NCBI GenBank assembly: GCA_046714175.1
Contig: JBKKBI010000045.1
Location: 200 to 64,199 of the forward strand
From: Acidimicrobiia bacterium
GTDB taxonomy: Bacteria; Actinomycetota; Acidimicrobiia; Spongiisociales; UBA11373
Length of the DNA: 64,000 nucleotides
Direction of reading: 5' to 3'
Shown one piece after another: positions 728 through 56,427 of the stretch. Made by a program: the position numbers and the translations under genes. The notes under the pieces were generated by a model that saw nothing but the letters and a program-made list of their open reading frames with translations, did no database searches and was not told the origin of the DNA. The first letter of the stretch is position 1; every line of letters starts with the position of its first letter.

Positions 728-752
728 GAGAGATCACAGATCACAGATCGAG
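728..752. repeat. Heptamer tandem array (AGATCAC)x~3.5, family D (TGYGATC on the other strand)
   Basis: Sequence agatcac agatcac agatcga, preceded by agag. It lies in the 89-bp divergent spacer between features 1..713(-) and 803..1561(+). Confidence 0.75.
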
Positions 753-802
753 GCGGTCGGATCCGTAATGGCTCCGTAGCGCCCCTAGGGCAGGGTGTAG
801 GT

Positions 803-1561
803 ATGACAAACGTTCGACGAACCGCGCTGCTAGCCGACTTTGGAAGGTTGGCACTGGCTGGGGGGCTGGCGGGGGCGGCGGCCGGTTTCCTCTGGGGCGG
901 CATTGGAGGTCGAATCGCGATGCGAATCGTATTTCTCACCTCCGATCCGCGGGTGGCGGGCCTCACCTCCGACGACGGTTTCGAGATCGGCGTGATCAGT
1001 TCGGCGAGCGGGTTCTTGATCTTTGCCACCACATTTTTCGGTGGGATGATCGGCCCGCTGGCGGCGATCGTGCGGCGCGCCCTGGGTGCCGGCACCATGA
1101 TCACAAGTCTGGGTTTCGGAGTCGCCACCGCGACGTTTCTCGGTGGGGCGATCGTTCACTACGAGGGCATCGACTTTCGATTGCTCGATCCGCTGTACCT
1201 GACGGTCGGCCTCTTCATCCTGATCCCGGGTGCGGCCGCCGCCACTGGGGTGGTGTTCCTGGACCGGATGCTCCGTCCCGAAGGGCGTATCGATCGACTC
1301 CCCTCTGCTGCGCTCTCGGTGGTGGCCGTGCTGGCTCTGTTCCCGGCGGTAGTCATCGGCGGTGCCGCGTTGCGCAATCTCGTGTCGCTGGTGGTGATAG
1401 CCGCCGTCGGACTGGCTGCACTCGCCATTTCGCGAATTGGAGACCATCCGGACGCTTCCCGTGCGCGCCGCGCCGCGCGCTGGGCGGCCTGGGGACTCCT
1501 GGCCGCGATGACCGTGGCCGGGGTACTGGAGTTGGCGCGCGACATCGCTTCCCTCACCTGA
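803..1561 (+). CDS. Hypothetical polytopic membrane protein
   Basis: 252-aa ORF with multiple Gly/Ala/Ile-rich hydrophobic segments and coding-like third-position GC. No family recognised. Confidence 0.6.
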   Translation: MTNVRRTALLADFGRLALAGGLAGAAAGFLWGGIGGRIAMRIVFLTSDPRVAGLTSDDGFEIGVISSASGFLIFATTFFGGMIGPLAAIVRRALGAGTMITSLGFGVATATFLGGAIVHYEGIDFRLLDPLYLTVGLFILIPGAAAATGVVFLDRMLRPEGRIDRLPSAALSVVAVLALFPAVVIGGAALRNLVSLVVIAAVGLAALAISRIGDHPDASRARRAARWAAWGLLAAMTVAGVLELARDIASLT

Positions 1562-1607
1562 GCCGGCGCCGCCAGAGCCTCTTCGGCGCCACCTACCCTG
1601 CGCCACC

Positions 1608-2498
1608 ATGCGGTTGACGCGCACCCTGGCCCAGTGGTCCCTGGGCACCACCATCTTCTTGGTGACACTGGGTGGCTACACGCGGGGCAGTGGGAGCGGA
1701 TACGGCTGCAAGGATCGCTGGCCGCTGTGCGAGAACGGCCTGCTCGGCGGGCTGTTGCCGCGGCTCGAGTACCACATGATCATCGAGTGGAGCCACCGCT
1801 GGGTGGCAGCAATCGTCGGCATCCTGATCGTTGCCACTGCATTGGCAGCATGGCGGGCACGGCCGCGCCGTGCTCGGGCGCTGTGGCCGGCGGTAATGGC
1901 CGTGTTCGTGGTGGGGCTCCAGGGCTGGCTGGGACGCGCCATCGTCAAGGCGGACCTCGACCGCGACCTGGTCTCGCTTCATCTATCGGTTTCGATGGCA
2001 ATCGTCGCCCTGCTGGTCCTGGTCGTCTCCGCCGCGAGCACCCGACAGGAGACACCCCCCTCCCGCAGGTGGAGGCTGTCCGCGATCGGTGCCGCGGTCA
2101 CTGCGTACGGCGTGCTGTTGCTCGGATCCCTGGTGCACGACCTCTACTTCGCCGGCTGGCCGATCATGAGCGAGGGCGTGATCCCGGACTTCGGGAGCGA
2201 TGACGTCGTGCTGCACTTTGTGCATCGCCTCGCCGCCGGTCTCGGCTTCGCCTACCTGGTCGGCGTGGCGGTCCTGGCACGGAGACGACGACGCCCGGAG
2301 CGCATCCTGCTCGCCATCGCCGCCGGGGCCTTCGCCGTGAACGTGCTGCTGGGGGCGGTCCACGTGTTCACCGAGGTCTCCTCGTCGTTCGTGGTGGCGC
2401 TCCACCTTCTGTTCGCCGCCATTGCATGGGCGTCGGCGGTGGGGGCTGCCGCGACTTCGTTCGGCTGGAGCGGCTCCACCAGGGCCACTGCGGGCTGA
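1608..2498 (+). CDS. ctaA: Heme A synthase (COX15/CtaA family)
   Basis: 296 aa. N-terminal TLGGYTRGSGSGYGCKDRWPLC motif, conserved HRWVA and HR histidines, about 8 hydrophobic helices. Confidence 0.85.
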   Translation: MRLTRTLAQWSLGTTIFLVTLGGYTRGSGSGYGCKDRWPLCENGLLGGLLPRLEYHMIIEWSHRWVAAIVGILIVATALAAWRARPRRARALWPAVMAVFVVGLQGWLGRAIVKADLDRDLVSLHLSVSMAIVALLVLVVSAASTRQETPPSRRWRLSAIGAAVTAYGVLLLGSLVHDLYFAGWPIMSEGVIPDFGSDDVVLHFVHRLAAGLGFAYLVGVAVLARRRRRPERILLAIAAGAFAVNVLLGAVHVFTEVSSSFVVALHLLFAAIAWASAVGAAATSFGWSGSTRATAG

Positions 2499-2523
2499 GG
2501 CCGCGCCGCGTACCATCGCAACC

Positions 2524-3495: not shown

Positions 3496-3516
3496 CTGCG
3501 ATCTGCGATCCGTGAT
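3496..3516. repeat. Heptamer tandem array (CTGCGAT)x3, family D
   Basis: Sequence ctgcgat ctgcgat ccgtgat starts at the base after the permease TAG stop (3493-3495). Confidence 0.7.
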
Positions 3517-3517
3517 C

Positions 3518-3539
3518 TCGGCGCCCCCGCAGGGGCGCC
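3518..3539. terminator. GC-rich hairpin between convergent genes (putative bidirectional terminator)
   Basis: cggcgcccc / cgca / ggggcgccg gives a 9-bp perfect stem. It sits between the permease stop (3495) and the dnaB stop (3541). No clear U-tract. Confidence 0.5.
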
Positions 3540-3540
3540 G

Positions 3541-17019: not shown

Positions 17020-17140
17020 GTCACTGTCGTTATATCGAACCGCTATAGCGGTGTCAAATCGACCGAAAGACGGATTTCGCGGTATCAAAGGCCTTCGTGG
17101 CCTCCCGGGCCTTGTGATTCAAGGGGGAACGGTTGCCGGC

Positions 17141-17161
17141 TACCCGCTGCCCGCTGCCCGC
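17141..17161. repeat. Heptamer tandem array (TRCCCGC)x3, family B (reverse complement GCGGGYA)
   Basis: Sequence tacccgc tgcccgc tgcccgc, in the nfo-padR spacer. Confidence 0.7.
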
Positions 17162-17180
17162 CAGAGAAGACTCGGGGCGG

Positions 17181-41329: not shown

Positions 41330-41432
41330 GACGTGACTTGAGGACGGCGCGTCCGGCCCGCGTCCTCATTCGGAGGCGGAAGCCGTGGCGCCGCTTGCGG
41401 CGTCGGACATTCGGTTGAAACGTGCGCTTCAT
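41298..41432 (-). CDS. rpmH: 50S ribosomal protein L34
   Basis: [44 protein letters not shown], 44 aa, from the ATG at 41432. The track ORF is over-extended to 41897. Confidence 0.95.
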
Positions 41433-41585
41433 GGAGGGCCCCGAGGAAGAGAGGGTGCGTCGGGGAGCGAGGTTACGAACCCTGCCTCCCGTTGTCAAAG
41501 GTGGCGCCAGGCTCACCGGCGACAAGACGCGAAGAAACCCACTGGATCGCGAAAGATGGCGCAACGCCGGGTTCGCCCACAGGAG

Positions 41586-41680
41586 ATGTCCACAGTGGGG
41601 GCGAACGCGAAAACCAGACCCGGAAACCGTTGCCCGGCAACGTGTCGACCGCCGCGGCCTTCCGCGTCGGGAGTGGATAA
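41586..41680. promoter_or_regulatory. DnaA-box-like sites in the rpmH-dnaA spacer
   Basis: aTGTCCACA at 41586-41594. agtggataa at 41672-41680 is the reverse complement of TTATCCACt. Confidence 0.6.
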
Positions 41681-41821
41681 GCCGCGATTTCACCGTCTTG
41701 TGGGGCTGCGGAACCGTTTCATATACTCGCCCGTCACCGGATGCCCCACCGGTCACTTCCTCGACAGGGTCCGGCGGCGCGCTGGAGCGGTCACCGAGGG
41801 GCGAGAACGGGAAAAGCATCA

Positions 41822-41853
41822 TTCTCCACAGTTGTGGACACCACTGTGGAGAA
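41822..41853. promoter_or_regulatory. Near-palindromic triple DnaA-box cluster at the dnaA start region
   Basis: ttctccaca gt tgtggacac cac tgtggagaa. The outer boxes are exact inverted copies of TTCTCCACA. The central box is the reverse complement of gTGTCCACA. Confidence 0.65.
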
Positions 41854-43249
41854 CCTCTTGGAAGCGGTCGAGGGAGTGAGGGAGGACGTGGAGGCACATC
41901 CCGCCGCCGGGGACTGGGAACAGTTCCGGCAAATCTTGCGTGGTCGCGTAACGCCCGTCACCTGGCGGGCCTGGTTGGAAAGCCTGGTACTGGAGAGCGG
42001 CGATGGCGCCGCGCTGCGCATCGTCGCCCCCAGCGAATTCCATCTTCGCTGGGTCAACGACAAGTACCGCGAGCTCATCGAGGAGGTGGCGCGGATCGCC
42101 TTCGGAGATGGTGCCGTGGTCGATCTGGCCGCCGCCGACGGGCAGGCGTTCGAGGGGCCGATCGTCGACGACGAACCCGAGCCGGAACCCACACCGGTAA
42201 CCGCTACGGCCCACCCCGAGACCGGGCGCCTGGTGCCCAAGTACTCCTTCGAGAACTTCGTCGTCGGTCAGAGCAATCGCTTCGCCCACGCCGCCGCCAT
42301 GGCGATCGCCGAACAGCCCGGGGGCAACTACAACCCGCTGTTCGTCTTCGGCGGTGCCGGCTTGGGCAAGACCCACCTGCTGCAGGCCATCGCCCAGCAC
42401 GCTCATGACCTCAACCCCAGGCTCGAGATCATCTATCTCAGCTCGGAGGCGTTCTTCAACCACTTCATCGAGGGGATCCGCAAGAAGCGGATGGACGAGT
42501 TCAAGGCCCGGTATCGCGGGGTCGACCTGCTCCTATTGGACGATGTCCAGTTCCTGGAAGGCAAGGAACAGATACTGGAGGAGTTCTTCCATACGTTCAA
42601 CTCGCTGTACGAAGCCGGCAAGCAGTTGGTGTTCTCCGCCGACCGGCCACCAAAGAGCCTCAGCAGCCTCGAGGATCGCATCCGGAGCCGATTCGAGTGG
42701 GGGCTGACCACCGACATCCAGCCGCCCGATGTGGAGACCCGGTTGGCGATCCTGCGCAAGAACGCCGCCTTCGCCCCCCAGGAGGTGCCGCAGCCCGTGC
42801 TGGGGTTCATCGCCAGCCGCGTCGTCGACAACATCCGCGAACTGGAAGGCGCCCTCACTCGGGTCACGGCATATGCCGCGCTCACCCACCAACCCATCGA
42901 CCTGGAGATGGCCGAGGACGTGCTGCAAGATCTCGGCCCCGCCCACCAGACGGTGCCAATAAGTCCCGGGCGGATCCTTGCGGCCACAGCAGAGTCGTTC
43001 GGGGTCTCGATCGTGGAACTCGAGGGGCCGAGCCGCCGGCAGCCCCTGGCGCGGGCGCGCCAGGTCTCCATGTACTTGTGCCGAGAGCTGACCGACCTCT
43101 CCCTACCCAAGATCGGGGGACTCTTCGGAGGACGCGACCACACCACGGTGATCCACGGAGTGAGCACGGTCGGCAAGCTCATGAAGACCGACCCCACCCT
43201 GTTCGATCGTGTCACTGCCCTGTTGCAAAGTCTGCGGAGAACTTCGTGA
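41834..43249 (+). CDS. dnaA: Chromosomal replication initiator protein DnaA
   Basis: Domain III Walker [17 protein letters not shown], box VII/sensor motifs, and domain [11 protein letters not shown]. The start is uncertain: in-frame candidates are ATG 41741 and GTG 41834, 41846, 41888. Confidence 0.93.
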
Positions 43250-43437
43250 ACCATCAACAGCCGCGTCGCGGGGGTCGCCCCCCTGTGGATGACTGCCCTC
43301 GCTCGTCCCCAGGCTGGGGGCGGACGAAAGGCACCCCCACTAGGCGCGACGCGATCTTCTCCACAATCCACAGCGTCTACTACTGCAACTGTCTTCTAAT
43401 TTCATTCCAAGAGTCGTAGGAGAGAAAGGCCCCCCCT
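43250..43437. other. Probable oriC core (dnaA-dnaN spacer with DnaA boxes and a relatively AT-rich segment)
   Basis: tgtggatga at 43284-43292 is the reverse complement of TcATCCACA. TTCTCCACA lies at 43357-43365, directly followed by ATCCACA at 43366-43372. The AT-enriched stretch tactactgcaactgtcttctaatttcattccaagag lies at about 43378-43415. Confidence 0.65.
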
Positions 43438-44517
43438 GTGCGCATCCGAGCCGAACGAGACGATCTCGTCGACGTCCTCAGCCGGGCGGGGCGTGCCGTT
43501 GGGGCGCGCACCGCGCTCCCGATCCTGCAGGGCCTGTTGGTCGAGGTGACAGGCAAGACGATGCGGGTCACCGGTACCGACCTCGATGTCACGGTGCGTA
43601 CCGAACTCGAGGTGGAGGTTCTCTCCGGGGGCACGACCGTCGTGCCGGCGCGGCTGGCTGCCGAAGCCGTTCGCAAACTCCCCCCCGGGGCCGTGACCTT
43701 CCAGGCCGAAGCGGGGGAGATCGAGATCAGCGGCGGGGGGCCGGTGTTTCGCTTCCGCGAATACGCGGCCAGCGACTTCCCCAAGCTGCCGGAACCCGTG
43801 CTCAAGGCCGCCGTGCCCGTCGACGGGGCCGCCTTCGTCGATGCGGTGGCCCAGGTGTCGGTGGCCGCATCCACCGACGACGCGCGGCCTGTGCTCACCG
43901 GGGTGTTCTTCGAGACGGAGTCGGGCCGGTTGCGTCTTGTCGCCACGGACTCCTACCGCCTCGCGGTGCGGGACGTCCCCGCGGTAGAAGCCGCGCTCGC
44001 GGGGTTGGTGCCAGTGCGGGCACTGAAGGAGATCGCTCGTACGGTGTCGGCGGGCAAACTCAAGGTGGCGGTGGGCGACCGCGAGGCCGCTTTTGCCTCG
44101 GATCGCGGGGTGCTCACAGCGCGGCTCATCGAGGGCAGCTTCCCCAACTACCGCCAGCTGATCCCGGCGACATATCCGAATCGCCTCACCATTCCCCGCC
44201 AGGCACTTCTTGATGCCATCGACCGCGCATCGCTCGTCGCCGAGGATCACATCCCGATCCGTATCACCTTGCAAAAGGGCGGCATCGAACTCAGCGTGAC
44301 CCGCCAGGACGTGGGCGGGGAGACCGAACACGTCGCCTCCGAGTACAACGGCGAAGAAATGACGATCGCGTTCAACAGTAGGTACCTCAACGACGGGGTG
44401 TTGGCGATTCCGGAGGAGACCATCGTCCTCGACGTGCTCGACCCGCTCAAGCCGGGTGTGTTGCGCGGAGCCGAGGGCACTGACTTCCTCTATCTGCTGA
44501 TGCCGGTGCGCCTGTAG
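43438..44517 (+). CDS. dnaN: DNA polymerase III subunit beta (sliding clamp)
   Basis: 359 aa. GTG start after AGGAGAG. Contains ATDSYRLAVR, LIEGSFPNYRQLIP and a conserved MPVRL C-terminus. Confidence 0.93.
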   Translation: MRIRAERDDLVDVLSRAGRAVGARTALPILQGLLVEVTGKTMRVTGTDLDVTVRTELEVEVLSGGTTVVPARLAAEAVRKLPPGAVTFQAEAGEIEISGGGPVFRFREYAASDFPKLPEPVLKAAVPVDGAAFVDAVAQVSVAASTDDARPVLTGVFFETESGRLRLVATDSYRLAVRDVPAVEAALAGLVPVRALKEIARTVSAGKLKVAVGDREAAFASDRGVLTARLIEGSFPNYRQLIPATYPNRLTIPRQALLDAIDRASLVAEDHIPIRITLQKGGIELSVTRQDVGGETEHVASEYNGEEMTIAFNSRYLNDGVLAIPEETIVLDVLDPLKPGVLRGAEGTDFLYLLMPVRL

Positions 44518-44525
44518 GAGGGGCG

Positions 44526-45629
44526 GTGCGCCTCTCCTGGATCGAGCTCACAGACTTTCGGTGCCATCACGCGCTGCGGGTGGAACCGGACCCCGAGGTC
44601 AACGTCTTCATCGGCGACAACGGATCGGGCAAGACCTCGCTCCTGGAGGCCGTCGGGTATCTCGCCACCCTGACGTCCTTCCGTCGTTCACCAGATGCAG
44701 CCCTGATAAGACAAGGCGCCGCGGCGGCACTCGTGCGTGGGTCCTTCGCCGCCGCGGGCGTCGAGACGGTGATCGAAGTCGAGATCCCCGAGGAGGGCCG
44801 GAGGCGGGTCCTGCTCAACGGAAAGCGCGTCACGGGTCGGTCCGCGATCGCCGCAGTAGTCGCTCTGGTGGCGTTTCTTCCCGACGATCTCGACTTGGTC
44901 AAACAGGGTCCGGCCTTCCGGCGCGACTACCTCGATGACCTCGCTGCGCAGATGTGGCCGGGAGCGGCCTCCGAGCAGGCAGACTTCGCGCGAGTGCTGA
45001 AGCAGCGCAACGCTCTCCTGCGCCAGGAGGGACGGAGTGCCGATGCAACGACGTTGGACGCACTCGATGAGACCCTTTGCCGCGAGGGGGGCCGGGTGCT
45101 GGCGCGTCGCCTCGCCGCCGCGGCGCTGATCACATCCCCGCTGCAGAGCCTCTATGCCGAACTGGGCGACGCCCCCGCTGCGATCGGTTTCGACTACGAA
45201 GCCGCCGGGTTGGGACCGCCGCCCGCTGACGCCGGCGCCGATGCCCTGGCCGCACTCTTGGCCCCGGCGGTAGCTGCGGCGCGCCGCCGCGATCAGGAGC
45301 GAGGACTGACGACCGTGGGACCGCATCGTGACGACGTGTCCCTGATGCTCGACGGGCGCGATGCCCGCACGCGCGCCAGCCAGGGGGAACAACGGTCATT
45401 GGCACTCGGGATGCGCCTCGCCGCGTATCGGGCGATCGCGGCGCGTCGGGACACAGAACCGCTGCTTCTCCTCGACGACGTCTTCAGCGAGCTCGACCCG
45501 GGACGCAGCCAACGACTGGTGGAGCGGCTGCCCGGTGGTCAAGTCTTTGTGACCTCGGCACGAAGTGAAGAAGTCCCGCTGGTGGGGACCAGGTGGCGAG
45601 TGCTGCGGAAGGGGGTGGCACGGGAATGA
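44526..45629 (+). CDS. recF: DNA replication/repair protein RecF
   Basis: 367 aa. Contains FIGDNGSGKTSLLEAV, signature SQGEQRSLAL and LLLDDVFSELD. Confidence 0.92.
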   Translation: MRLSWIELTDFRCHHALRVEPDPEVNVFIGDNGSGKTSLLEAVGYLATLTSFRRSPDAALIRQGAAAALVRGSFAAAGVETVIEVEIPEEGRRRVLLNGKRVTGRSAIAAVVALVAFLPDDLDLVKQGPAFRRDYLDDLAAQMWPGAASEQADFARVLKQRNALLRQEGRSADATTLDALDETLCREGGRVLARRLAAAALITSPLQSLYAELGDAPAAIGFDYEAAGLGPPPADAGADALAALLAPAVAAARRRDQERGLTTVGPHRDDVSLMLDGRDARTRASQGEQRSLALGMRLAAYRAIAARRDTEPLLLLDDVFSELDPGRSQRLVERLPGGQVFVTSARSEEVPLVGTRWRVLRKGVARE

Positions 45630-45937
45630 CCGACGACTTGAAACCGATCGGATCCGGATTGGAGCGGCTGTTGCGCGACATGGGAATGCCACGGCTGGTC
45701 GACATCGCCAGCCTCGCCGACGAGTGGGCCGAAGCGGCCGGGGAGCCATTCGCCGGCCTCTCCCGGCCCGCCTCCTATCGCGCCGGGGAACTGGTTCTGG
45801 TGGTGGCAGATGGGGCGGCCGCCAGCCTCCTCAAGTACCGGATTGGCGACCTGGTGGCACGCCTCGGAGAGCGGTACGGACCGGGTGCGGTGACCTCCGT
45901 CCGGCTCCGGGTCGGGGGGGCGAAAAAGGGCCTCTGA
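45626..45937 (+). CDS. DUF721 domain protein (DciA-like, position of mycobacterial Rv0004)
   Basis: The ATG at 45626 overlaps the recF stop (ATGA). Contains WAEAAGEPFAGLSRPASYRAGELVLVVADGAAASLLKY, typical of DUF721. Confidence 0.8.
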   Translation: MTDDLKPIGSGLERLLRDMGMPRLVDIASLADEWAEAAGEPFAGLSRPASYRAGELVLVVADGAAASLLKYRIGDLVARLGERYGPGAVTSVRLRVGGAKKGL

Positions 45938-46080
45938 CCAGGGGTTTTACCCTGCCCCAGAGGCCGGATTGTGTCCGCTTCGGGACTAAGATCACATGGA
46001 TGTCGGCAGCAGTTGGTACGGGCTTCGACCCGGTGCCATCCGGTGTCGTACCGAACCCGTTTCACGGTGCGTCCGGATAG

Positions 46081-48018
<1,938 letters not shown>

Positions 48019-48023
48019 TGACT

Positions 48024-48058
48024 CGCGACCCGCGACCCGCGACCCGCTCCCCGCAAGA
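48024..48058. repeat. Heptamer tandem array (CGCGACC)x3 plus 2 degenerate units, family B in reverse orientation (GACCCGC)
   Basis: Sequence cgcgacc cgcgacc cgcgacc cgctccc cgcaaga. It starts 6 nt after the gyrB TAA stop. Confidence 0.85.
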
Positions 48059-48097
48059 TCGCGTTACAGCGCTCACTTGGCGTCGGGCTTGGGTCTG

Positions 48098-48125
48098 GCG
48101 GGAAGCGGGTAGCGGGCAGCGGGCA
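48098..48125. repeat. Heptamer tandem array (GCGGGNA)x4, family B, inverted relative to 48024..48058
   Basis: Sequence gcgggaa gcgggta gcgggca gcgggca. It ends 8 nt before the gyrA start. Confidence 0.85.
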
Positions 48126-48132
48126 GCCTGCA

Positions 48133-50571
48133 TTGACTGACGAACAAGACCCGCGGGGGCGGGTCGAGGTGATCGACATCGAGCAGGAGGTCAAGGCCTC
48201 CTTTCTCGAGTACGCCATGTCGGTCATCGTCTCCCGGGCGCTTCCCGACGTGCGCGATGGGCTGAAGCCGGTACATCGCCGCATCCTGTATTCGATGTAC
48301 GACGCCGGGATTCGTCCCGGCACCCCATTCCGCAAGAGCGCCCGCGTCGTCGGTGATGTGATGGGTTGGTTCCATCCCCATGGCGGTGAGGCGATCTACG
48401 ACGCCATGGTTCGTCTCGGCCAGGACTTCGCCAGCCGCTACCCGCTCGTGGAGCCGCAAGGCAATTTCGGCACCGTGGACGATCCGCCGGCGGCGATGCG
48501 ATACACCGAAGCCCGGCTGGAGAAGCTGGCGATGCACTTGCTCGACGGGATCGACGAGAACACGGTCGACTTCGAGGACAACTACTCCGGAGAGCGCCAG
48601 GAGCCGACCGTGCTCCCGGCGCGGTTCCCCAACCTGCTGGTGAACGGCTCGACCGGCATCGCCGTCGGCATGGCCACCAACATTCCGCCGCACAATCTCC
48701 GTGAGGTGATCGACGCCACCCTGCACCTGATCGACAACCCCGACGCCACCGCCGCCGCGCTCACCAAGTTCATCAAGGCGCCGGACTTCCCCACCGGGGG
48801 CTACATCGTCGGCAACAAGGGAGTGCGCGACGCTCTCCTTACCGGGCGGGGGTCGGTAAAGATGCGCGCGGTCGCCGAGATCGAGGAGGTGCGCAAAGGC
48901 CGTACTGCGATCGTGGTGACCGAGATCCCGTATCAGGTGTCACGGGATCGCATCATGGAGAAGATCGCCGAGCTGGTTCGCGACAAGAAACTCACCGGCA
49001 TCGCGGACCTGCGCGACGAGTCCGACCGCAACGGCACCCGGCTGGTCATAGAACTGAAGCGCGACGCGGTGCCCCAGGTGGTGCTCAACCAGCTCTTCAA
49101 GTTCACCCAGCTGCAGGAGAACTTCGGGGTGAACATGGTGGCCCTGGTCGACGGTGTGCCGCATACCCTCAACGTCGCTCAGATGATCGGGTACTACATC
49201 GATCACCAGATGGTGGTGGTGGAGCGCCGCACCCGCTTCCGCCTCGCCAAAGCGGAGGCCCGAGCCCACATCCTCGAAGGCCTCCTGATCGCCCTGGACA
49301 ATATCGACGAGGTCGTCGAGATAATCCGGAACTCCGCCGACACCGAAGCCGCCCGGGGAACCCTCATGCAGCGCTTCGAGTTGACCGAGATTCAGGCGAC
49401 CCACATCCTCGACATGCCGCTGCGCCGCCTCACCGAGCTCGAGACCTCCAAGCTGCGCGAGGAACACGACGAACTGCAGAAGCTGATCAAGTACCTCAAT
49501 GGGCTCTTGAAGAGCCCTGCCAAGCGCCGTGCCCTGATCGGCGACGAGCTGCGCGAGATCAGAGAGAAGTTCGGAGATGATCGCCGCAGCCGCATCATCG
49601 CCGACGACGGCGACATGTCCCTCGAAGACCTGATCGCCGACGAGGAAGTGGTGGTCACCGTCACCGCGAACGGGTACTTGAAGGCGGTCAACGCCTCGTC
49701 GTACAAGCGCCAGGGCCGCGGGGGACGCGGGGTCAAGGCCGAGACCCTGCGCGAGGACGATGTGATTCATCACGTGGTGCACACCACGGCCCACGCCTAT
49801 CTGCTCTTCTTCACCAATCGGGGCAAGGTGTATCGGATCAAGGCCCACGAGATCCCGCGCAAGGAGCGCACCGCCAAGGGCGTGCTGGCGCAGTCTGTAC
49901 TGCCACTCGGTCCCGACGAGGTGATCGAGGCGCTGATCGACACGCGCGACTACGAGACCACCCGTTATCTGGTGATCGCCACTCGTCTGGGCCAGGTCAA
50001 GAAGACCGAGTTCAAGGAGTACGAGAGCCGCAACGCCGCCTTGGTGGCGATCCGTCTCCAGGACGATGACGAGGTGGTGTCGGTGCGCACCACGATGGGC
50101 AAAAACGACGTTCTCATGTTCACCTCGAAGGGATTCGGGATACGGTTCAAGGAGACCGAGCTGCGGGCGATGGGCCGCGACACCCAGGGGGTGAAGGGGA
50201 TCAGGCTGCGCGAGGGCGACCGCGTGGTGTCGGTCACCTCGGACCGCGAGGGCGGCGAGGTGTTGCTGCTCACCACCGGTGGTTACGGCAAGCGCACCAA
50301 GGTCACCGAGTTCCGCCGCCAAACACGGGGAGGAATGGGGGTCATCGCCCTCAAACCGACCCGGGTGCGCGGCACGCTCGCCGCGGGCCGCGCCGTACCC
50401 CCGAACTCAGAAATCTTCGTCACCTCGACCGACGGGGTGGTGATTCGCATCGCCACCGACACCATCTCCCGCCAGAAGCGGGAGGCGGGTGGCGTCAAGG
50501 TCATGAACACCTCCGCCGGCGCCGAGATTTCGGCAGTGGCACTGGTGCCACCGGAAGCGGACGAAGAGTAG
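48133..50571 (+). CDS. gyrA: DNA gyrase subunit A
   Basis: 812 aa. TTG start. Contains [40 protein letters not shown], the active-site region [10 protein letters not shown], and C-terminal beta-pinwheel repeats. Confidence 0.96.
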
Positions 50572-50699
50572 GCCCCGGGCTACCACCCGCTACCCGGTCG
50601 ATCGCAGACACGTCCCGAAGCGATCTTGCGGGAAGCAGAGAGCGGGCCGCGACTTTTGGTTCCACGGCAAACTCCTGACACACCGTTACCCTGCTCGCT

Positions 50700-51182
50700 A
50701 TGGCTGTCCAGCGTGTGCGACGGGTGATCCGCAAGTTCGACCCCTGGTCGGTGCTCAAGGTGTCACTGGTGTTCAACGCCGTGATGGCCCTCGTCTTCGT
50801 TCTCGGCACCGTGATCTTCTGGGCGATCTTCGTCAACGCCGGCATCCCGGAGAAGATCAACGAGCTGGCGCTGCTCATCGGGTTGGAGAACGGCATCAAC
50901 CTCGAGGGCGCGGTTTACTTCAAGATCGTGGTCCTGCTGGCGGTGGTGGGGACGATCGCGATGACCGGCTTCATCACCCTCGCGTCGGTCGTCTACAACC
51001 TGATCAGCGATCTGGTGGGTGGTGTCGAGGTGATCGTGCTCGAGGAGACCACCGGTCCCATCGTGACTCGGCCGGTGATGTCGTTCGCGGCTGCCAAGGT
51101 AGAACCGAAGCGGAGCATCCTCCCCGGCGCAAAGAAGAAGCCCGCGGAGCCTGCGACAGAAGTCGAGCGGACGGCATCTTGA
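50700..51182 (+). CDS. DUF3566 domain-containing transmembrane protein
   Basis: 160 aa. Contains RRVIRKFDPWSVLKVSLVFNAVMALVFVLG. It occupies the conserved position after gyrA (as Rv0007 does). Confidence 0.8.
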   Translation: MAVQRVRRVIRKFDPWSVLKVSLVFNAVMALVFVLGTVIFWAIFVNAGIPEKINELALLIGLENGINLEGAVYFKIVVLLAVVGTIAMTGFITLASVVYNLISDLVGGVEVIVLEETTGPIVTRPVMSFAAAKVEPKRSILPGAKKKPAEPATEVERTAS

Positions 51183-51192
51183 CCGAGTTTCC

Positions 51193-51213
51193 AGCCGACA
51201 GCCGACAGCTACT
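51193..51213. repeat. Heptamer tandem array (AGCCGAC)x3, family E (NGACAGC)
   Basis: Sequence agccgac agccgac agctact. It lies between convergent genes and overlaps the stop codon at 51209-51211. Confidence 0.65.
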
Positions 51214-51982
51214 CCTGATGCACCGCCACCCCCAAGCCCACACTTAGCGCGGCGCTGAGGAACGCGGCAGCGGTCGTGGCCGGGGAGTGACCGCCCGGAG
51301 TTGGTGTGCCTCCGGCGACTACCAATGTGCCGGCGGCGAGGGCGATCGCGTCGAGATGGTCGCGCTGATCCGCCACCCCCACCACCCGCGGTGCGGCCTT
51401 GCCCCCCGGCCGCGCCGCCACCGAAGCCGCCGACCACGAACCACCGATCGGCACCTCGATGCCACCGGGCACCGGTCGTCCCCAGCGAGCTCCGACGGGG
51501 TCGGGGAACCCAACCGCTACGCCGCGTCGTAGGGCTTTGCCTGGTGTCGTCCAGGCAACGGTGAGGTCGACAGGCCCTTCCACCCCGGCAGCTTCGTGGG
51601 CGGCAAGGCTGGTGGCGAGACCGCGCAGGTCGGCACCGGAGAGCAGGATGAGCCCCGAGGCGAGGAATCGGTCCGCCACCGCCGCGGGTACCGCGGCGAC
51701 CGTCACACAGGAGAGGCCGTCCTCGACGGCGATGGCAGCAAGTGGGGTCGGATCGGGGTCGTCGGTGACGAGCATGTCGAACCCGGCGAGGTCGGAGATG
51801 CGCCGCACCCGACGGTCGGACCCCAGGGTTCCGGCACCGTAGATTCCTAGCGCGGTGAGTGATCGCTCGGCGAGGAGGATCAGGCCGGCGCGGGTACCTG
51901 CTGCACCGACGGAGTGGAGGGCGACCCGCATCAGAGCGGGGTCCAGGTGCCCCGCACCCGCGGAGCTGCTTCCGTCTTCCAC
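51209..51982 (-). CDS. Hypothetical Ala/Gly-rich protein
   Basis: 257-aa ORF with coding-like codon bias. An alternative start is MRVALHS at 51931. No family recognised. Divergent from the B12 riboswitch locus. Confidence 0.45.
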   Translation of the reverse strand: MEDGSSSAGAGHLDPALMRVALHSVGAAGTRAGLILLAERSLTALGIYGAGTLGSDRRVRRISDLAGFDMLVTDDPDPTPLAAIAVEDGLSCVTVAAVPAAVADRFLASGLILLSGADLRGLATSLAAHEAAGVEGPVDLTVAWTTPGKALRRGVAVGFPDPVGARWGRPVPGGIEVPIGGSWSAASVAARPGGKAAPRVVGVADQRDHLDAIALAAGTLVVAGGTPTPGGHSPATTAAAFLSAALSVGLGVAVHQE

Positions 51983-52094
51983 CGCCGTGCCGCGGCGATC
52001 CCCGCCGCGGCAAGCAATGCGATCAGAGCCAGACGGAGGGAACGGGGCATTCCGAGAGGTTACCCCTTATCCGTTTTCCGATACCCCTCTCGGA

Positions 52095-52338
52095 CAAAGG
52101 GCAGCGGACAACGACAACCAGTGCGGCTGCCGGTAAAGTCATGTCCGCGGCCGCACCAGGGCCGTGGCTCTGTGTCCAGCGAAGTCCGGTGAGAATCCGG
52201 CGCTGTCCCGCAACCGTGAAGCCCCCTGCGTGGGGACGAGTCGGGTCGCCTGACGCCGGGCCGGTTTGGAGGCCTTCGGAGGAAGGGTCGCCCGCCATCC
52301 GGCAACGACACCTCCTCCTCGACAACGAGGAGGTTTTT
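52095..52338 (+). promoter_or_regulatory. Cobalamin (B12) riboswitch with terminator/SD-sequestering expression platform
   Basis: The conserved core gaagtccGGTGAGAATCCggcGCtGTCCCGCAACcGTGAag lies at 52181-52221. A B12-box-like gAGTCgGGtcgCCTGac lies at about 52237-52255. The platform hairpin cctcctcg/acaa/cgaggagg at 52314-52333 is followed by ttttt and the ATG at 52340. The 5' boundary is approximate. Confidence 0.8.
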
Positions 52339-52339
52339 C

Positions 52340-53230
52340 ATGAGGAGACCGATCACGGTCCTCACCCTGTTGGTGATGCTTGCTGCAGCATGCGGCGCTG
52401 ACGTCACCGACACCACCAACCCACCGGGGTTCCCGCGCCAGATCGCGGGGATCACGCTGACCGAACCGCCGCAGCGGATCATCTCGGGCTCACCGACCCA
52501 CACCGAGACCTTGTTCGCGGTCGGGGCGGGAGATCAGGTGGTGGCGGTGGATTCGTTCTCGGACTTTCCCGCTGCCGCCTCAGGCCTTCCCCACCTCGAC
52601 GCCTTCAATCCCAGCGTCGAGGGGTTTGCTGCTCTCGATCCCGATCTGGTGATCGTGACCTTCGATCCCAACGACCTCGTCCGGGGGCTTGGTGCGCTGG
52701 GGATTCCGGTGTGGGTGCTCGATGCCCCGGTCGACCTTGCCGGGGTGTACCGGCAGATCGAAGAGATCGGTGATGTCACCGGCCACAGGGCCGGAGCCGG
52801 CGCGGTTGTAGCTGGAATGGAGGATGACATCGCGGCGATAGTGTCCGGGCTGCCGCAGCCGGTGCCGGCCCTCACCTACTACCACGAGCTCGACGACACC
52901 TACTACTCGATCGGATCGGACACCTTTCTCGGGTCGCTGTACGGCTTGGTCGGCCTGACCAGTATCGCCGACGCCGCCGGAGGCGGGTATCCGCAACTAT
53001 CGGCGGAGTTCATCGTGGCCGCCGATCCGGACTTTGTGTTTCTCGGCGACGGAGCGTGTTGCGCGCAGACGCCGGAGACGGTTGCAGCACGCCCCGGCTG
53101 GGACGAGATGACGGCGGTGTCGGAAGGCAGAGTGGTGGTGGTCGATGAGGCCCTGTCGTCGCGGTGGGGACCGCGGATTGTCGAGTTCCTGCGGTCAGTG
53201 GTCGATGCGGTATATCAGGAGGCTTCCTGA
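52340..53230 (+). CDS. ABC transporter substrate-binding lipoprotein (BtuF / iron-siderophore-cobalamin type)
   Basis: 296 aa. Lipobox LLVMLAAACGAD. Periplasmic binding protein type-8 pattern (PQRIISGSPTHTETLFAVGAGDQVVAV). Lies downstream of the B12 riboswitch. Confidence 0.85.
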   Translation: MRRPITVLTLLVMLAAACGADVTDTTNPPGFPRQIAGITLTEPPQRIISGSPTHTETLFAVGAGDQVVAVDSFSDFPAAASGLPHLDAFNPSVEGFAALDPDLVIVTFDPNDLVRGLGALGIPVWVLDAPVDLAGVYRQIEEIGDVTGHRAGAGAVVAGMEDDIAAIVSGLPQPVPALTYYHELDDTYYSIGSDTFLGSLYGLVGLTSIADAAGGGYPQLSAEFIVAADPDFVFLGDGACCAQTPETVAARPGWDEMTAVSEGRVVVVDEALSSRWGPRIVEFLRSVVDAVYQEAS

Positions 53231-54255
53231 GACAGCGCCGGATTCCGCGTCCGGCCCTCCTCATCGTGGTCGCGTTGGCGGTGGGGGCGGCGCTGGCGGG
53301 CGCCCTGATCGGTCCGGCGGCGTTGTCTCCCGGGGGAGTGGTGGCTGCGCTGCTCGACCGCCTTCCCTTTCTCAGCATCGACTCCGGGCTCACGGATCGC
53401 GAGACCGCGATCCTGTTCGACCTGCGCTTGCCCCGCGTCGTCCTCGGTCTGTTGGTGGGTGCCGTGCTGTCGGTGTCGGGCGGCGCCTACCAGGGGGTGT
53501 TCCGCAACCCGTTGGCTGATCCGTATCTGCTCGGGGTCGCCGCCGGGGCCGGCCTCGGGGCGACGGTGGCGATCGTGACCATTGGCTCCGGATCGATCCT
53601 GGTGGGTGTCGCGGCGTTTGCGGGAGCGCTGGGAGCGGTGGTGTTGGCTTACGGTCTTGGTGCTGCCGCCGGCGGCAGACGCACCGGCGCGACCCTGATC
53701 CTCGCCGGGGTGGCGGTGGCCGCCTTTCTCACCGCTGTGCAGACGTTCGTCCAGCAGCGCAACACCGATGCCATCCGCGAGGTGTACTCATGGATCTTGG
53801 GCCGACTCGGCACCGCAGGGTGGAACGAGGTGGCGCTGCTGGCCCCTTACGCGGGGATCGCGATCACCGTGGTGCTGCTGCACCGCCGCCTACTCGACGC
53901 AATGGCGGTCGGTGAGGAGGAGGCGCGCACGCTGGGGTTGCGGCCGGAGCGGGTGCGGATCATCGTCGTGCTTGCCGCCACTCTCGGCACCGCCGGAGCG
54001 GTAGCGGTCAGCGGGCTGATCGGTTTCGTGGGGATCATCGTCCCTCATACGGTGCGACTTCTGGTCGGTGGGTCGTATCGGGTCATCCTCCCTCTCAGCG
54101 TCCTCGGCGGTGGTGCCTTTCTCGTCCTCGCCGACCTGATCGCCCGTACCGTGCTCAGCCCGGCCGAGGTTCCGATCGGGGTCGTCACCGCCTTCGTCGG
54201 CGGACCCTTCTTTTTGCTGGTTCTGCGCAACTCCGCCCGGATGGGGGAGCGATGA
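53164..54255 (+). CDS. FecCD-family ABC permease (BtuC-like)
   Basis: About 10 TM helices. Contains RLPRVVLGLLVGAVLSVSGGAYQGVFRNPLADPYLLGV. The start is uncertain: the GTG at 53164 overlaps the upstream gene by 67 nt, and a later start is possible. Confidence 0.85.
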   Translation: MGTADCRVPAVSGRCGISGGFLRQRRIPRPALLIVVALAVGAALAGALIGPAALSPGGVVAALLDRLPFLSIDSGLTDRETAILFDLRLPRVVLGLLVGAVLSVSGGAYQGVFRNPLADPYLLGVAAGAGLGATVAIVTIGSGSILVGVAAFAGALGAVVLAYGLGAAAGGRRTGATLILAGVAVAAFLTAVQTFVQQRNTDAIREVYSWILGRLGTAGWNEVALLAPYAGIAITVVLLHRRLLDAMAVGEEEARTLGLRPERVRIIVVLAATLGTAGAVAVSGLIGFVGIIVPHTVRLLVGGSYRVILPLSVLGGGAFLVLADLIARTVLSPAEVPIGVVTAFVGGPFFLLVLRNSARMGER

Positions 54256-55022
54256 GCGATCTGGTGGTCTCGGGTCTCAGCGTTTCGTTTGGGCGCCGTA
54301 TCGCAGTCGATGGGGTCGACGCCGCCGTCGGCGCCGGGGAGTGGTTGGCAGTGATCGGACCCAACGGCTCGGGCAAGACCTCGTTGTTGCGGGGGGTGGC
54401 GGGAACGGTGCCCCATCGTGGGTCGGTGCGCGTGGACGGTGTTGAGCTGTCCGACATGACCGCACGCCGCGCCGCCACCGCGGTGGCCATGGTGCCGCAG
54501 CATCGTGTGCTGCCCGAAAACATGACGGTGCTCGACTATGCCTTGCTGGGACGAATCCCCCACACCGGATACTTCGGCGTCGAAGGGCCCAACGATCTGG
54601 CCGCGGTGCGCCGTGCCCTTGACCGGCTGGGAACCGCCGACCTGGAGAGTCGGCCATTGGGCACGCTGTCGGGCGGCGAGTTGCAGCGCGTCGTGTTGGC
54701 GCGGGCACTGTCGCAGGATGCAGGCGTGTTGCTCCTCGATGAGCCGACAACCTCCCTCGACATCGGGCACGCCCAGCAGGTGCTCGACCTGGTGGACCAG
54801 TTGCGACGGGAGCGGGGGATGGCCGTGGTCGCCGCGATTCACGATCTCACCCTGGCCGCGCAGTACGCCGATCGCTTGGTGCTTCTCGATCAAGGAGTCG
54901 TAGTGGCTCAGGGTCCGCCGCGTGATGTTCTCACCCCCTCCGCCGTGGCCCACTTCTCCGGAGCCCGGGTTCACTTGATGCAGGGACCGGGCGGCGAGAC
55001 CGTGATCGTTCCCCGGCGCTGA
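54252..55022 (+). CDS. ABC transporter ATP-binding protein (BtuD/FepC-like)
   Basis: 256 aa. Walker A GPNGSGKTS, signature LSGGELQRV, Walker B LLLDEPT. Its ATG overlaps the permease stop. Confidence 0.9.
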   Translation: MSDLVVSGLSVSFGRRIAVDGVDAAVGAGEWLAVIGPNGSGKTSLLRGVAGTVPHRGSVRVDGVELSDMTARRAATAVAMVPQHRVLPENMTVLDYALLGRIPHTGYFGVEGPNDLAAVRRALDRLGTADLESRPLGTLSGGELQRVVLARALSQDAGVLLLDEPTTSLDIGHAQQVLDLVDQLRRERGMAVVAAIHDLTLAAQYADRLVLLDQGVVVAQGPPRDVLTPSAVAHFSGARVHLMQGPGGETVIVPRR

Positions 55023-55023
55023 T

Positions 55024-55443
55024 TCAACCGGTGACTGTCAGCGATCCAGTCATCTGCGGGTGGATGGCGCAGAAGAACTCGTAGCTGCCGGCGGAGTCGA
55101 AGGTGAAGCCGAACGACGCCCCGCTGTCGATAGGCCCGGAGTCGAAGATCTGGTCGGAGGAGGTCCAGGTGTGGCTGTCGCCGTCGCGGTTCACCACGGT
55201 GACCGGATCTCCCGCCGCGGCGGTGACCGGATCACCAAAGTCGAATCCGGAGATGATGATCAGTACCCCGGCCGCAACAGCGGCCGTCGTCGTGACGGCA
55301 TCGTCGCCATTGGCATAGGGGCTGATGTCGGGTGGATCCCCACTGAGGAATCCCGAGGCGAACCCGAACAACGCCGCCAGCCAGAGCGTTCCCGCGGCGA
55401 TCAGCACGGTGAGCACCACCCTCGACACCACCCTTTGGCTCAT
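55024..55443 (-). CDS. Cupredoxin (plastocyanin/azurin-like) domain protein with N-terminal TM anchor
   Basis: Start MSQRVVSRVV (ATG 55443). C-terminal HTWTS...YEFFCAIHPQMTGSLTV is a type-1 copper ligand pattern (H, C, H, M). Confidence 0.8.
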   Translation of the reverse strand: MSQRVVSRVVLTVLIAAGTLWLAALFGFASGFLSGDPPDISPYANGDDAVTTTAAVAAGVLIIISGFDFGDPVTAAAGDPVTVVNRDGDSHTWTSSDQIFDSGPIDSGASFGFTFDSAGSYEFFCAIHPQMTGSLTVTG

Positions 55444-56003
55444 CAGAACCCCGGAAACTCGACGGTGGTGAAGAACCAGAAAGACGACGTGAGCCACAGA
55501 CCTACCAGCGCCGTGAAGACCACGCCTCCGGCCCAGGGGAGCGCCCATGAGTGGAGTCGGTGATTGCGCACGATCATCACCTTGGAGACGAACGCGCCGT
55601 AGAAGAAGCATCCCAAGAGAGAGTGCACCAGGACTCGGGCGCCGGCATCGGCCGTAAAGCCCAACGCCCACAAGCAGTGGTAGGAGACGGGGAGTGTCAG
55701 CAAGATCGCGGTGGTGCCGGAGATGCGGTGCACCGAACCGAGCCACTGCGGAGCCGGGTTCTTGCCCAGTTTGCCGTAGATGCGGAGTGCGGTGGCCAAC
55801 TGGAAGAGCCCGAGCGCCATCGCCGCGGTGGCCAGCCATACCTTGGCGTTGATCGTGGCGGTGAAGAAAATGGTGACCAGCGACCGCCCCGTGGGGTCGT
55901 GGACGTTGCCGTACACCCCGAGTCCCACAGCCACCACCGCGCCGACGAGAACGGCAAGCAATAGGCCACGCCGATCCGGTCGCACCACCACCGCCGCCGT
56001 CAT
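55443..56003 (-). CDS. DUF6529-like integral membrane protein
   Basis: Start MTAAVVVRPD (ATG 56003). Five or six TM helices. One-nt stop/start overlap with the cupredoxin gene. The family name is from recollection of the common DUF6529-cupredoxin pairing. Confidence 0.65.
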   Translation of the reverse strand: MTAAVVVRPDRRGLLLAVLVGAVVAVGLGVYGNVHDPTGRSLVTIFFTATINAKVWLATAAMALGLFQLATALRIYGKLGKNPAPQWLGSVHRISGTTAILLTLPVSYHCLWALGFTADAGARVLVHSLLGCFFYGAFVSKVMIVRNHRLHSWALPWAGGVVFTALVGLWLTSSFWFFTTVEFPGF

Positions 56004-56045
56004 GGCCACCTCCTGTGCCACGACGCTACCGCTTCCCCGGCCGGC

Positions 56046-56381
56046 TTGTGTCGCGTCCACGGGTCCGGGCCGCCTGGCCTCCCCGGCTCTGATGTTGCGG
56101 GCGGTTGGTACGGGGCCGACTCCACTTGGCGCGTGCATTTCTACGCCCATCTCGCCTACTGGGAGCATTGGATCTGGACCGGCACCAGAGTCGAGGCCGG
56201 TGATGTCATGGGCCGACTCGGCTCGTCGGGCAACGCCGATTCGCCTCCGGTCCATTTCGGCTGGATGCCGGGTTCGCGCCGCGTCGACCTGGACAATCTG
56301 CAGAACCCTTATCCGCTGCTGAGCGAGATCTGTCCCGACAACGACGTCCCGGAGTGGTTCCTCGACTCCCCAGGTGGCTAA
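56046..56381 (+). pseudogene. C-terminal remnant of an M23 (LytM-type) peptidase domain
   Basis: Translation ...FYAHLAYWEHWIWTGTRVEAGDVMGRLGSSGNADSPPVHFGW matches only the distal half of an M23 domain (YAHL...V..G..IG..G.TG....PHLHFE). There is no room upstream for the HxxxD half, because the DUF6529 gene starts at 56003 on the other strand. Confidence 0.45.
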
Positions 56382-56406
56382 GTAAGGACGAGTTGTCTAT
56401 CGCACA

Positions 56407-56427
56407 CGACAGCTGACAGCTCACAGG
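56407..56427. repeat. Heptamer tandem array (YGACAGC)x3, family E
   Basis: Sequence cgacagc tgacagc tcacagg. It overlaps the stop codon of the M28 peptidase gene (56421-56423). Confidence 0.65.

Follow-up and report, generated by a model that had tools for sequence, protein, structure and literature searches.

Heptanucleotide repeat arrays with interchangeable motifs occupy intergenic spacers in a clade of uncultured Acidimicrobiia

We analysed a 64-kb stretch of contig JBKKBI010000045.1 (hereafter, the window), which is oriC-proximal core genome of an uncultured Acidimicrobiia bacterium and carries short tandem arrays with a 7-nt period in the spacers between its genes. A gene map built from codon-usage scores places 62 genes on 88.5% of the window and leaves 11.5% non-coding. 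The core genes include rpsF-ssb-rplI-dnaB, pyr genes, parAB, rsmG, jag, yidC, dnaA-dnaN-recF-dciA-gyrB-gyrA and a btuF-type transporter. An earlier note on this DNA had listed about 15 strict 7-nt arrays and had named several of the genes beside them. Pfam confirms these neighbours (an ABC permease, an AP endonuclease, cca, gyrB/gyrA, jag and an M28 peptidase), and Tandem Repeats Finder (TRF) agrees with the array positions to within a few bases.

The period-7 signal is far beyond chance. TRF reports 15 period-7 rows in the window, where 40 dinucleotide-preserving shuffles average 1.9 and never exceed 5, and all 15 rows fall in the non-coding part, as the earlier note had claimed of the arrays in general. 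For periods 8, 10 and 11 the TRF counts do not exceed their own shuffle means. Exact tandem repeats of at least 2.5 copies are found eight times in non-coding and never in coding DNA at period 7, and at most once in non-coding DNA at any of the periods 4-6 and 8-13. For period 7, a mismatch-tolerant lag scan picks out 10 non-coding segments with a combined length of 408 nt; for periods 5, 6, 8, 10 and 11 it picks out none. Period 7 is the sole enriched period between 4 and 13, and the arrays are not matched in density by coding DNA or shuffled sequence, which the earlier note had named as grounds for giving up the observation. Across the clade of close relatives described below, 51 of 52 arrays are non-coding, the single exception being a 2.1-copy match at chance level.

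An assembly artefact can be ruled out, since the arrays are present in about 12 independent assemblies (JGI, ENA, NCBI, Logan). CRISPR arrays, with repeats of 25-40 nt and unique spacers, are ruled out by contiguous 7-nt units without spacers. Minisatellites of the mycobacterial interspersed repetitive unit or variable number tandem repeat type (MIRU/VNTR, units of about 40-100 nt) are ruled out by the period and by the lack of enriched long-period arrays in the spacers, and coding repeats by unit size. The view that the architecture is neither CRISPR- nor MIRU-like thus stands on unit size and contiguity. An exact-match protein look-up gave no record for GyrB and, for PrkA, only Logan unitigs of 2 kb that end within the array. 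These two Logan assemblies (L001, L002) have the same sequence as the window over 24604-26619 and then break 30 nt into the GGGCAAC array. The 12.3-copy count of this array comes from one assembly, and L001 and L002, which end inside it, give no copy number.

Among the weaker traces that had been proposed, those at 32127-32140 and 33541-33553 are inseparable from chance. The traces at 29329-29349, 52064-52092 and 50584-50597 are supported, but solely by full arrays of relatives at the same site or by a non-repeat junction found in common. The arrays and supported traces of the window are given in Table 1.

Table 1. Heptamer arrays and accepted traces in the window
Motif and copies	Position	Strand	Setting	Basis
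AGATCAC x2.7	731-749		between divergent luciferase-like monooxygenase (3-713, -) and hypothetical (848-1561, +) genes	TRF, Pfam
CTGCGAT x3.3	3496-3518		begins at first base after ABC-permease stop (3495); convergent with dnaB	TRF
TGCCCGC x4.0	17134-17161		solo arm, GCGGGNA family; minus strand retains the TCTGGCGGG junction of other copies	TRF
CGGCTTC/CGGTCTC, 14-nt super-unit, 5.9 units	17178-17217		overlaps stop of AP-endonuclease gene (17216-17980, -); reverse complement of CCGGAGA/CCGGAAG	TRF
CCGTTNN x4.6, degenerate	26546-26577		left arm of inverted pair, convergent prkA/cca spacer	TRF
GGGCAAC x12.3, perfect	26590-26675		right arm; ends 1 nt before cca stop (26677); carries G-quadruplex motifs	TRF
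CCCGTNG, decayed, ~2.5 units	29329-29349		not detected by TRF	orthologous spacer in L084, L086 has full CCGTTAC/AACGGGA inverted pairs
CCGGAGA x9.6	30384-30449		divergent HDAC-like/GNAT spacer, exactly between two conserved CCGATACC motifs	TRF
GGTAACG x3.9, imperfect	33562-33588		tandem spacer	TRF
CCGGAGA/CCGGAAA, 8 units from 38641 and 3.3 from 38717	38641-38739		9-nt-period interruption; 11 nt from rsmG (gidB) start	TRF
GCGGGNA x4.6	38856-38890		6-9 nt from jag stop (38897); TCTGG junction; ordinary GC hairpin after	TRF
GACCCGC x4 plus degenerate units	48020-48058	+	left hairpin arm, gyrB-gyrA spacer; starts 1 nt after gyrB stop; 7-nt register kept in four congeners	TRF
GCGGGNA x4.3	48098-48127	+	right arm of gyrB-gyrA hairpin; ends 5 nt before gyrA start	TRF
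GACCCGC/GCGGGNA family, decayed inverted pair	50580-50651		after gyrA stop	sequence, shared junction
CAGCCGA x2.6	51192-51209		26-nt convergent spacer; touches stop of gene 51209-51982 (-)	TRF
CCGTTNN, decayed	52064-52092			ortholog in L126 is CCGTTGC x13.6 + CGGGCGG x4.6
GACAGCT x2.7	56408-56426		last unit holds final Leu codon and stop of M28 peptidase (56421-57428, -)	TRF

The earlier note had sorted the arrays into five discrete families. They instead form one connected one-mismatch cloud, in which its families B and C are one base apart (GGGCAGC versus GGGCAAC). With rotation and strand allowed, 8-12% of motif pairs across the clade lie within one mismatch, against 2.6% of random heptamers; judged by their sequences, the motifs are a related, drifting cloud. 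Four-nucleotide palindromes (CCGG, GATC, AATT) occur only in some motifs, and arms such as GACCCGC x4 and GGGCAAC x12 are not self-complementary. The copy number has its mode at 4.0-4.5 units (about 30 nt), with 18 of the 52 clade arrays in this class; a few arrays are much longer, at 8-13.6 units. Motifs without a G-tract show the four-unit mode just as well (AGTTGCC, CAATTGC, AGATCTC, GCGAATT, GCTCATG, AGGCACC). Variable positions inside arrays are modestly concentrated at one or two of the seven unit sites (P ~0.02).

Related arrays that share a spacer are inverted in 11 of 13 cases in the clade, and the pairs give long imperfect hairpins (-32 to -78 kcal/mol, z -2.4 to -6.8). Such pairs in the window include 26546-26577 with 26590-26675 and 48020-48058 with 48098-48127. 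The former folds as RNA with -60 kcal/mol (z -5.2), and the latter is part of a hairpin element that fills the entire gyrB-gyrA spacer (-65.7 kcal/mol, z -3.6). We also observed that in G/C-skewed inverted pairs the C-rich arm is nearly always the 5' arm (about 7-9 versus 1), a property that does not depend on the strand. This tally covers the window (26546/26590, 48020/48098, 50580/50628), L083, L084, L086 and L126, and the bias is statistically insecure because it comes from only about four independent motif families.

Some similarity extends beyond the repeat units. In L083, a 99-nt unit of arm, 45-nt loop and arm is 98% identical on either side of cca. The window intervals 50580-50651 and 48031-48062 have in common, in inverted orientation, the non-repeat junction GCGATCTTGCGGG (reverse complement CCCGCAAGATCGC), and CCCGCAAGATCGC is found again in L083, L084, L126 and L127. 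The junctions CCCGCAAGA and TCTGGCGGG are likewise common to several loci and genomes. A composite element of about 150 nt, made of a GC hairpin, two GCAATTCGTCAG copies and a terminal GCGAATT x4, occurs with 71% identity at three loci in two genomes (L085 150-330, L085 1752-1940 and L086 3780-4010) and has no Rfam match. When the array-masked spacers were compared with each other by BLAST, only three non-orthologous similarities were found, so most of the non-repeat spacer DNA is not a dispersed element.

The arrays are restricted to a narrow clade, whose sequence was sampled in two origin-proximal regions. In collections with one genome per species the nearest GyrB proteins are from uncultured Acidimicrobiia with at most 78% identity, and these loci have no array excess; in the two nearest (L003 and L004) the gyrB-gyrA spacer is 10 and 21 nt long. 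Closer relatives differ sharply among themselves. L126, L127, L129 and L132 (GyrB 89-93%) have dense arrays and gyrB-gyrA spacers of 114-160 nt, the contig of L132 ending in an array. L130 (GyrB 83%) has five arrays in 17 kb and a spacer of 11 nt; L128 (83%) has no arrays beyond chance and a spacer of 12 nt, and L131 (81%) has no arrays and a spacer of 11 nt. By Cca identity, L083-L086 (79-84%) carry 2-8 arrays per locus of 3.7-11.7 kb, and L087-L096 (about 53-61%) carry 0-1 per locus. Arrays of at least three copies have a density of 3.57 per 10 kb in the clade versus 0.14 in 1.1 Mb of other high-GC loci, and the gyrB-gyrA spacer measures 114-160 nt in the clade versus 10-21 nt in the outgroups. 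Close lineages with many (GyrB at least 89%), some (L130) and no arrays (L128, L131) constitute a comparative system, in which gain or loss of genes for replication, repair and transposition could be correlated with array density.

Congeners have equally dense arrays in the same spacers, with different motifs. The gyrB-gyrA spacer is 114 nt in the window and L127, 159 nt in L126 and 160 nt in L129, and it is packed with arrays in each: GACCCGC and GCGGGNA in the window, CGTCGCC and CTGGAGA in L127, AGGCACC, GCAGATG, GCTCTTT and CCTGGTG in L126, and AGTTGCC, AGATCTC and CAATTGC in L129. When the first array after gyrB is aligned, every species has the same 7-nt register and about four units, followed by a fifth that is degenerate. 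At 7-nt intervals all species have the same G and CC positions, and 3-4 of the 7 unit positions are altered together within each species. This array is a case of concerted evolution in place, and orthologous arrays can be traced through motif turnover. It has four units in five genomes, the same-species contigs L129 and L132 included. In L126, an older CCCGC-type arm remnant is nested within newer outer arms. The two arms have changed together between the window and L126 with complementarity retained; in L127 it has gone, and in L129 it is partial. At another orthologous site, CCGTTGC x13.6 in L126 corresponds to the decayed trace at 52064-52092 in the window. Those spacer parts whose function is known are free of arrays and show ordinary conservation (dnaA-dnaN, the gyrB promoter region and an adenosylcobalamin (AdoCbl) riboswitch).

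L129 and L132 belong to the same species, being 98.2% identical over 5959 nt and 99.6% in gyrB. Right after the AGTTGCC x4 array downstream of gyrB they diverge completely (L129 5927-6086 versus L132 6124-6172), which may mean that the array boundary is structurally polymorphic or that the end of contig L132 is an artefact. We did not use this break as evidence of polymorphism, since L132 ends 15 nt later and its tail may be such an artefact. The arrays break short-read assemblies (L001, L002 and L132 end inside them), and they lengthen the spacers of essential genes, as between gyrB and gyrA.

That many arrays abut stop codons had been pointed out before, and this part of the claim stands: of the 22 spacers that hold a gene 3' end, 14 have an array block no more than 6 nt from a stop, where uniform placement expects 7.4 (P = 2e-4). 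However, when the 40 nt before starts are excluded, 11.5 of 22 are expected (P = 0.10), and a special link to stops is mostly gone. Arrays cover 17% of the spacer DNA between convergent genes, 12% between tandem genes and 6% between divergent genes, and in tandem spacers they lie closer to the upstream stop than to the downstream start. In nfo, the M28 peptidase gene and L126 gyrA, the first unit, as read from the sequence, includes the stop codon itself. Such a duplication leaves the protein unchanged. The simplest reading is that stop adjacency mostly marks where unconstrained DNA begins.

In cyanobacteria, arrays of heptanucleotides have been on record since 1990. The earlier note had likened the window arrays to these short tandemly repeated repetitive (STRR) sequences, and the comparison is the right one: both have several heptamer families per genome, which are tandem, intergenic and lineage-specific. 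The STRRs belong to another phylum, their motifs are different, and the clade arrays are shorter, mostly of about four units. The same note knew of no description in high-GC actinobacteria. This has to be corrected, as long simple sequence repeats (SSRs) with heptanucleotide units were described before. In the work of Mrázek, Guo and Shah (2007), which PMC4679880 and PMC4692102 summarise, heptanucleotides are the most abundant class of long SSRs in most genomes, and slippage linked to the polymerase footprint is proposed as the cause. According to the summary in PMC4679880, the ten genomes with the most 5-11-nt repeats include three Actinobacteria, and the distribution over phyla is scattered. 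Long SSRs resemble our arrays in that units that are not a multiple of three are kept out of genes and the distribution is sporadic; the excess of 7-nt tandems, the non-coding restriction and the lineage-specific abundance are found here as well. These summaries make no mention of Acidimicrobiia, inverted pairs or register-conserved concerted evolution.

The closest match in anatomy is the GGGAATC repeat of Xanthomonas (Rehm et al. 2015, PMC4692102), which mostly has four units and is 89-93% intergenic. It lies on average 28 nt from the upstream open reading frame (ORF) versus 160 nt from the next, forms 70-75 inverted pairs per genome, is under-represented between divergent genes, varies between Xcc and Xac, and has no known function (PMC4692102). 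The clade arrays share the 7-nt unit, the intergenic location, the size of about four units, the inverted pairs, the position at the end of the upstream ORF, the scarcity between divergent genes and the presence in the same spacers of sister species with variation in length and sequence. Xanthomonas, however, has one dominant G-tract motif, whereas the window clade has more than 15 motifs, mostly without G-tracts, that replace one another at a site. Single intergenic heptamer motifs are also found in Chloroflexus aurantiacus, (GATAGRA)n (PMC6749651), and in marine Beggiatoaceae, where direct TAACTGA repeats are abundant just upstream of starts and translational control has been suggested (PMC4679880); TAACTGA adjoins starts, whereas the clade arrays shun start-proximal DNA. 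It had also been held that the arrays are not like repetitive extragenic palindromic (REP) sequences. Since most related arrays that share a spacer are paired in inverted orientation, their architecture is in fact like that of REP doublets forming hairpins (REPINs; Bertels and Rainey 2011, PMC3116915), which are extragenic inverted doublets with hairpins of about 100 nt, outnumber same-orientation pairs, and have families shared within a genome and solo decayed copies. The clade arms differ in being 7-nt periodic and mostly non-palindromic, with motifs that turn over in place.

The arrays are thus a new lineage of a known heptanucleotide repeat class, that of long SSRs, STRRs and Xanthomonas GGGAATC. 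A literature search found no paper linking Acidimicrobiia with heptamer repeats, and a 2026 preprint on Actinomycetota repeats does not mention heptamers. What is new is the lineage with its sharp phylogenetic boundary, the many interchangeable motifs, the arrays wedged between gyrB and gyrA, and the register-conserved concerted evolution at about four units irrespective of G content.

We favour, with a probability of about one half, the explanation that the arrays are largely non-adaptive repeat DNA, driven by slippage and conversion in unconstrained spacers, with inverted pairs arising via template switching or gene conversion. Units would be born and homogenised through slipped-strand replication and unequal exchange. 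Inverted partners would be made or kept alike by hairpin-templated strand switching and by gene conversion from arm to arm or from locus to locus, and the outcome would be hairpin units of about 60-150 nt that are now and then copied into neighbouring spacers. These would have proliferated within one genus-level clade of uncultured Acidimicrobiia. Since a 7-nt unit shifts the reading frame, arrays would persist only in DNA free of coding, promoter and ribosome-binding-site constraint, that is, right after stop codons and between divergent core promoters. They would abut stops and inflate tiny spacers because unconstrained DNA begins there. The arrays would be selfish or neutral and serve no required function, and their hairpin and G-quadruplex potential would be a by-product with possible local effects. 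The concerted change of units is indirect evidence for slippage, as is the difference between 13.6 units and a decayed trace at one orthologous site. Several points weigh against this explanation. It leaves the period of 7 and the choice of clade unaccounted for. Five genomes hold to about four units although the sequence of the unit differs among them; slippage running freely would hardly be expected to do this, and a constraint on length or a molecular ruler is hinted at. The concentration of variable sites at one or two of seven is as expected under constraint on a core. Every congener keeps arrays in the same spacers, that between the essential gyrB and gyrA included, possibly through selection rather than inertia. 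The shared loops and junctions point to copy-and-paste beyond slippage alone, the case for slippage comes from cross-species comparison rather than from direct polymorphism, and the sampled DNA of the clade is limited to the two regions near the origin.

The main rival takes the arrays for mobile hairpins resembling REPINs or miniature inverted-repeat transposable elements, with two inverted arms of about four heptads and a loop, copied by an enzyme encoded elsewhere, such as a Y1 enzyme like the REP-associated tyrosine transposases (RAYTs); the heptad period would then stem from iterated sites for binding or recognition along the arms. We consider this possible but unlikely. The inverted orientation of 11 of 13 related arrays speaks for it, and elements of 60-150 nt with strong hairpins fit the description of REPINs (PMC3116915). 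So do the near-identical L083 copies, which include the non-repeat loop (99 nt, 98%), the CCCGCAAGA and TCTGGCGGG junctions shared over loci and genomes, the composite element at three loci in two genomes, the nesting in L126 of outer arms around older remnants, and the recurrence of one motif family in neighbouring spacers of a genome. Pfam detected no transposase, RAYT or reverse-transcriptase domain among the 62 window genes, which says little about the rest of the genome that lay outside the search, and we know of no RAYT from this lineage. No target-site duplications were seen, most arms are non-palindromic, which REPs are not, and many arrays are solo and one-directional (30384-30449, 38641-38739). 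At orthologous arrays the register is kept while the unit changes, which fits homogenisation in place better than re-insertion, and for the sole near-identical pair, 1.5 kb apart, local conversion could suffice. Mobility of this kind and the slippage and conversion that we favour are not mutually exclusive, and neither explains the four-unit constancy well. One could regard the arm of about 30 nt and four heptads as a measured unit. Hairpins with such arms would be built, copied or bound, regardless of unit sequence, by a protein or enzyme specific to the clade; candidates would be a transposase or recombinase that has escaped recognition, a polymerase activity that switches templates, or a DNA- or RNA-binding protein that counts heptads. 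We offer this idea tentatively and think it rather improbable. If true, it would make the arrays miniature elements of a new class, mobile or structural, and would supply a molecular reason for 7 nt and four units, in Xanthomonas too.

Functional roles, several of which the earlier note had suggested, fare less well. We regard as distinctly unlikely that the arrays, and the inverted pairs in particular, are RNA elements under selection that stand directly behind stop codons, at 3' ends or in intercistronic positions, acting as terminators without a U-tract, as stabilisers like REPs or bacterial interspersed mosaic elements, or as RNase III sites. Such a role agrees with the 14 of 22 spacers in which the array block is within 6 nt of the stop, with the closeness to the upstream stop in tandem spacers, as in Xanthomonas, and with the strong hairpins, whose arms have co-changed between the window and L126 and are still complementary. 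Canonical hairpin-plus-T terminators are nearly absent downstream of genes in 37000-56999, so another 3' signal may be needed; a scan of this interval for a hairpin and U-tract gave no array among the terminator-like matches. Strand asymmetry, however, gives no support: the antisense strand folds more stably in 12 of 17 spacers, with a summed difference of +80 kcal/mol. Several arrays are in divergent promoter spacers or are one-directional, complementarity at the gyrB-gyrA site is lost in L127 and partial in L129, and compact GC hairpins stand alongside arrays in the same spacers (window 3519-3540, directly after the CTGCGAT array; L127 5326-5346; L084). The outgroups cope with a gyrB-gyrA spacer of 10-21 nt, and the stop-proximity excess is gone once start-proximal DNA is excluded. 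At its gathering score Rfam has no match in the 64-kb window and only an AdoCbl riboswitch in seven relatives, none at arrays, and a tRNA scan of the window found nothing at arrays. Very improbable, in our judgement, are binding sites of a heptad-reading protein and phase-variable contingency switches. There are precedents for heptad binding in the ribbon-helix-helix omega repressor on WATCACW heptads and in HutP on UAG-N4 repeats. For CspB, one protein per heptamer has been described (PMC4679880). The strict 7-nt spacing, the conserved core with one or two variable positions, the conserved size of about four units and the invariant G and CC every 7 nt across species would suit such a reader. 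Yet 3-4 of 7 positions differ between congeners at the same site and more than 15 motifs coexist, which is incompatible with a single sequence-specific reader. As for contingency by slipped-strand mispairing, the very limited sample has a constant copy number (four units after gyrB in five genomes and equal numbers in L129 and L132, with L001 and L002 uninformative as they end in the array), and the neighbours are core housekeeping rather than surface or variable genes. Least probable of all are regulatory G-quadruplexes or i-motifs, in which four units would provide the four G-tracts of a quadruplex, a role proposed for Xanthomonas GGGAATC and Nostoc GGGGAYT (PMC4692102). The GGGCAAC and GCGGGNA arrays fit a G3N4 pattern, 6 of the 11 G-quadruplex motifs in the window are inside arrays (four arrays, of these two motifs), and the four-unit mode is the same as in Xanthomonas. 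But G3 tracts occur only in GGGCAAC and GCGGGNA arrays, about 4 of the 15 in the window, and where arrays are paired in inverted orientation a quadruplex has to compete with the hairpin. The four-unit mode is equal for G-tract-free motifs, so quadruplex formation cannot explain it in the clade, and this undercuts the same explanation of the Xanthomonas mode. None of the contingency, canonical-terminator, sense-strand RNA, general G-quadruplex and single-binder readings is supported.

The AdoCbl riboswitch of the window (52153-52299, +) lies upstream of the btuF-like Peripla_BP_2/FecCD/ABC operon. It scores 48 bits against a Rfam gathering score of 50, and its ortholog in L126 passes with 50.7 bits. 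A hairpin plus T5 after it, at 52314-52333, is the only convincing terminator in 37000-56999.

A scan of viral contigs for two window motifs gave matches in 23 contigs (L133-L155) of unrelated lineages with GC of 0.36-0.70, among them contigs that resemble cyanobacteria; their arrays reach 52 units, a length seen in L139. Many contigs of the viral class (for example L133, L135, L140 and L149) have several different heptamer arrays side by side, and L135 has the inverted pair AGTGGGC/CCCACTG. Multi-motif heptamer arrays are thus widespread.

Some other features of the window spacers deserve mention. The two CCGATACC copies of the divergent HDAC-like/GNAT spacer (30376-30383 and 30491-30498) lie 12 nt and about 10 nt from the start codons, the GNAT-side copy reads GGTATCGG on the + strand, and the motif also occurs in L083 and L086. 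They probably represent the core promoters, or else an operator common to both genes. The palindrome GTTTCACGTGAAAC, which we take to fit the parS consensus, occurs twice in the rsmG-jag spacer (38744-38757 and 38781-38794), just downstream of parAB (36348-37992) and with heptamer arrays on both sides. The 1.17-kb interval 40663-41833 between yidC and dnaA has no called gene and is 77% identical to L126 over 1139 nt; yidD, rnpA, rpmH and oriC are expected there from synteny with L126 and L128, and no heptamer arrays were seen in it. Finally, a perfect palindrome at 24587-24620, GGTGAGCGGGAGACC-TAGG-GGTCTCCCGCTCACC, lies between a 168-aa gene and prkA and is not itself a heptamer array. It is kept in L083 and L085 and could be an operator or a bidirectional terminator.

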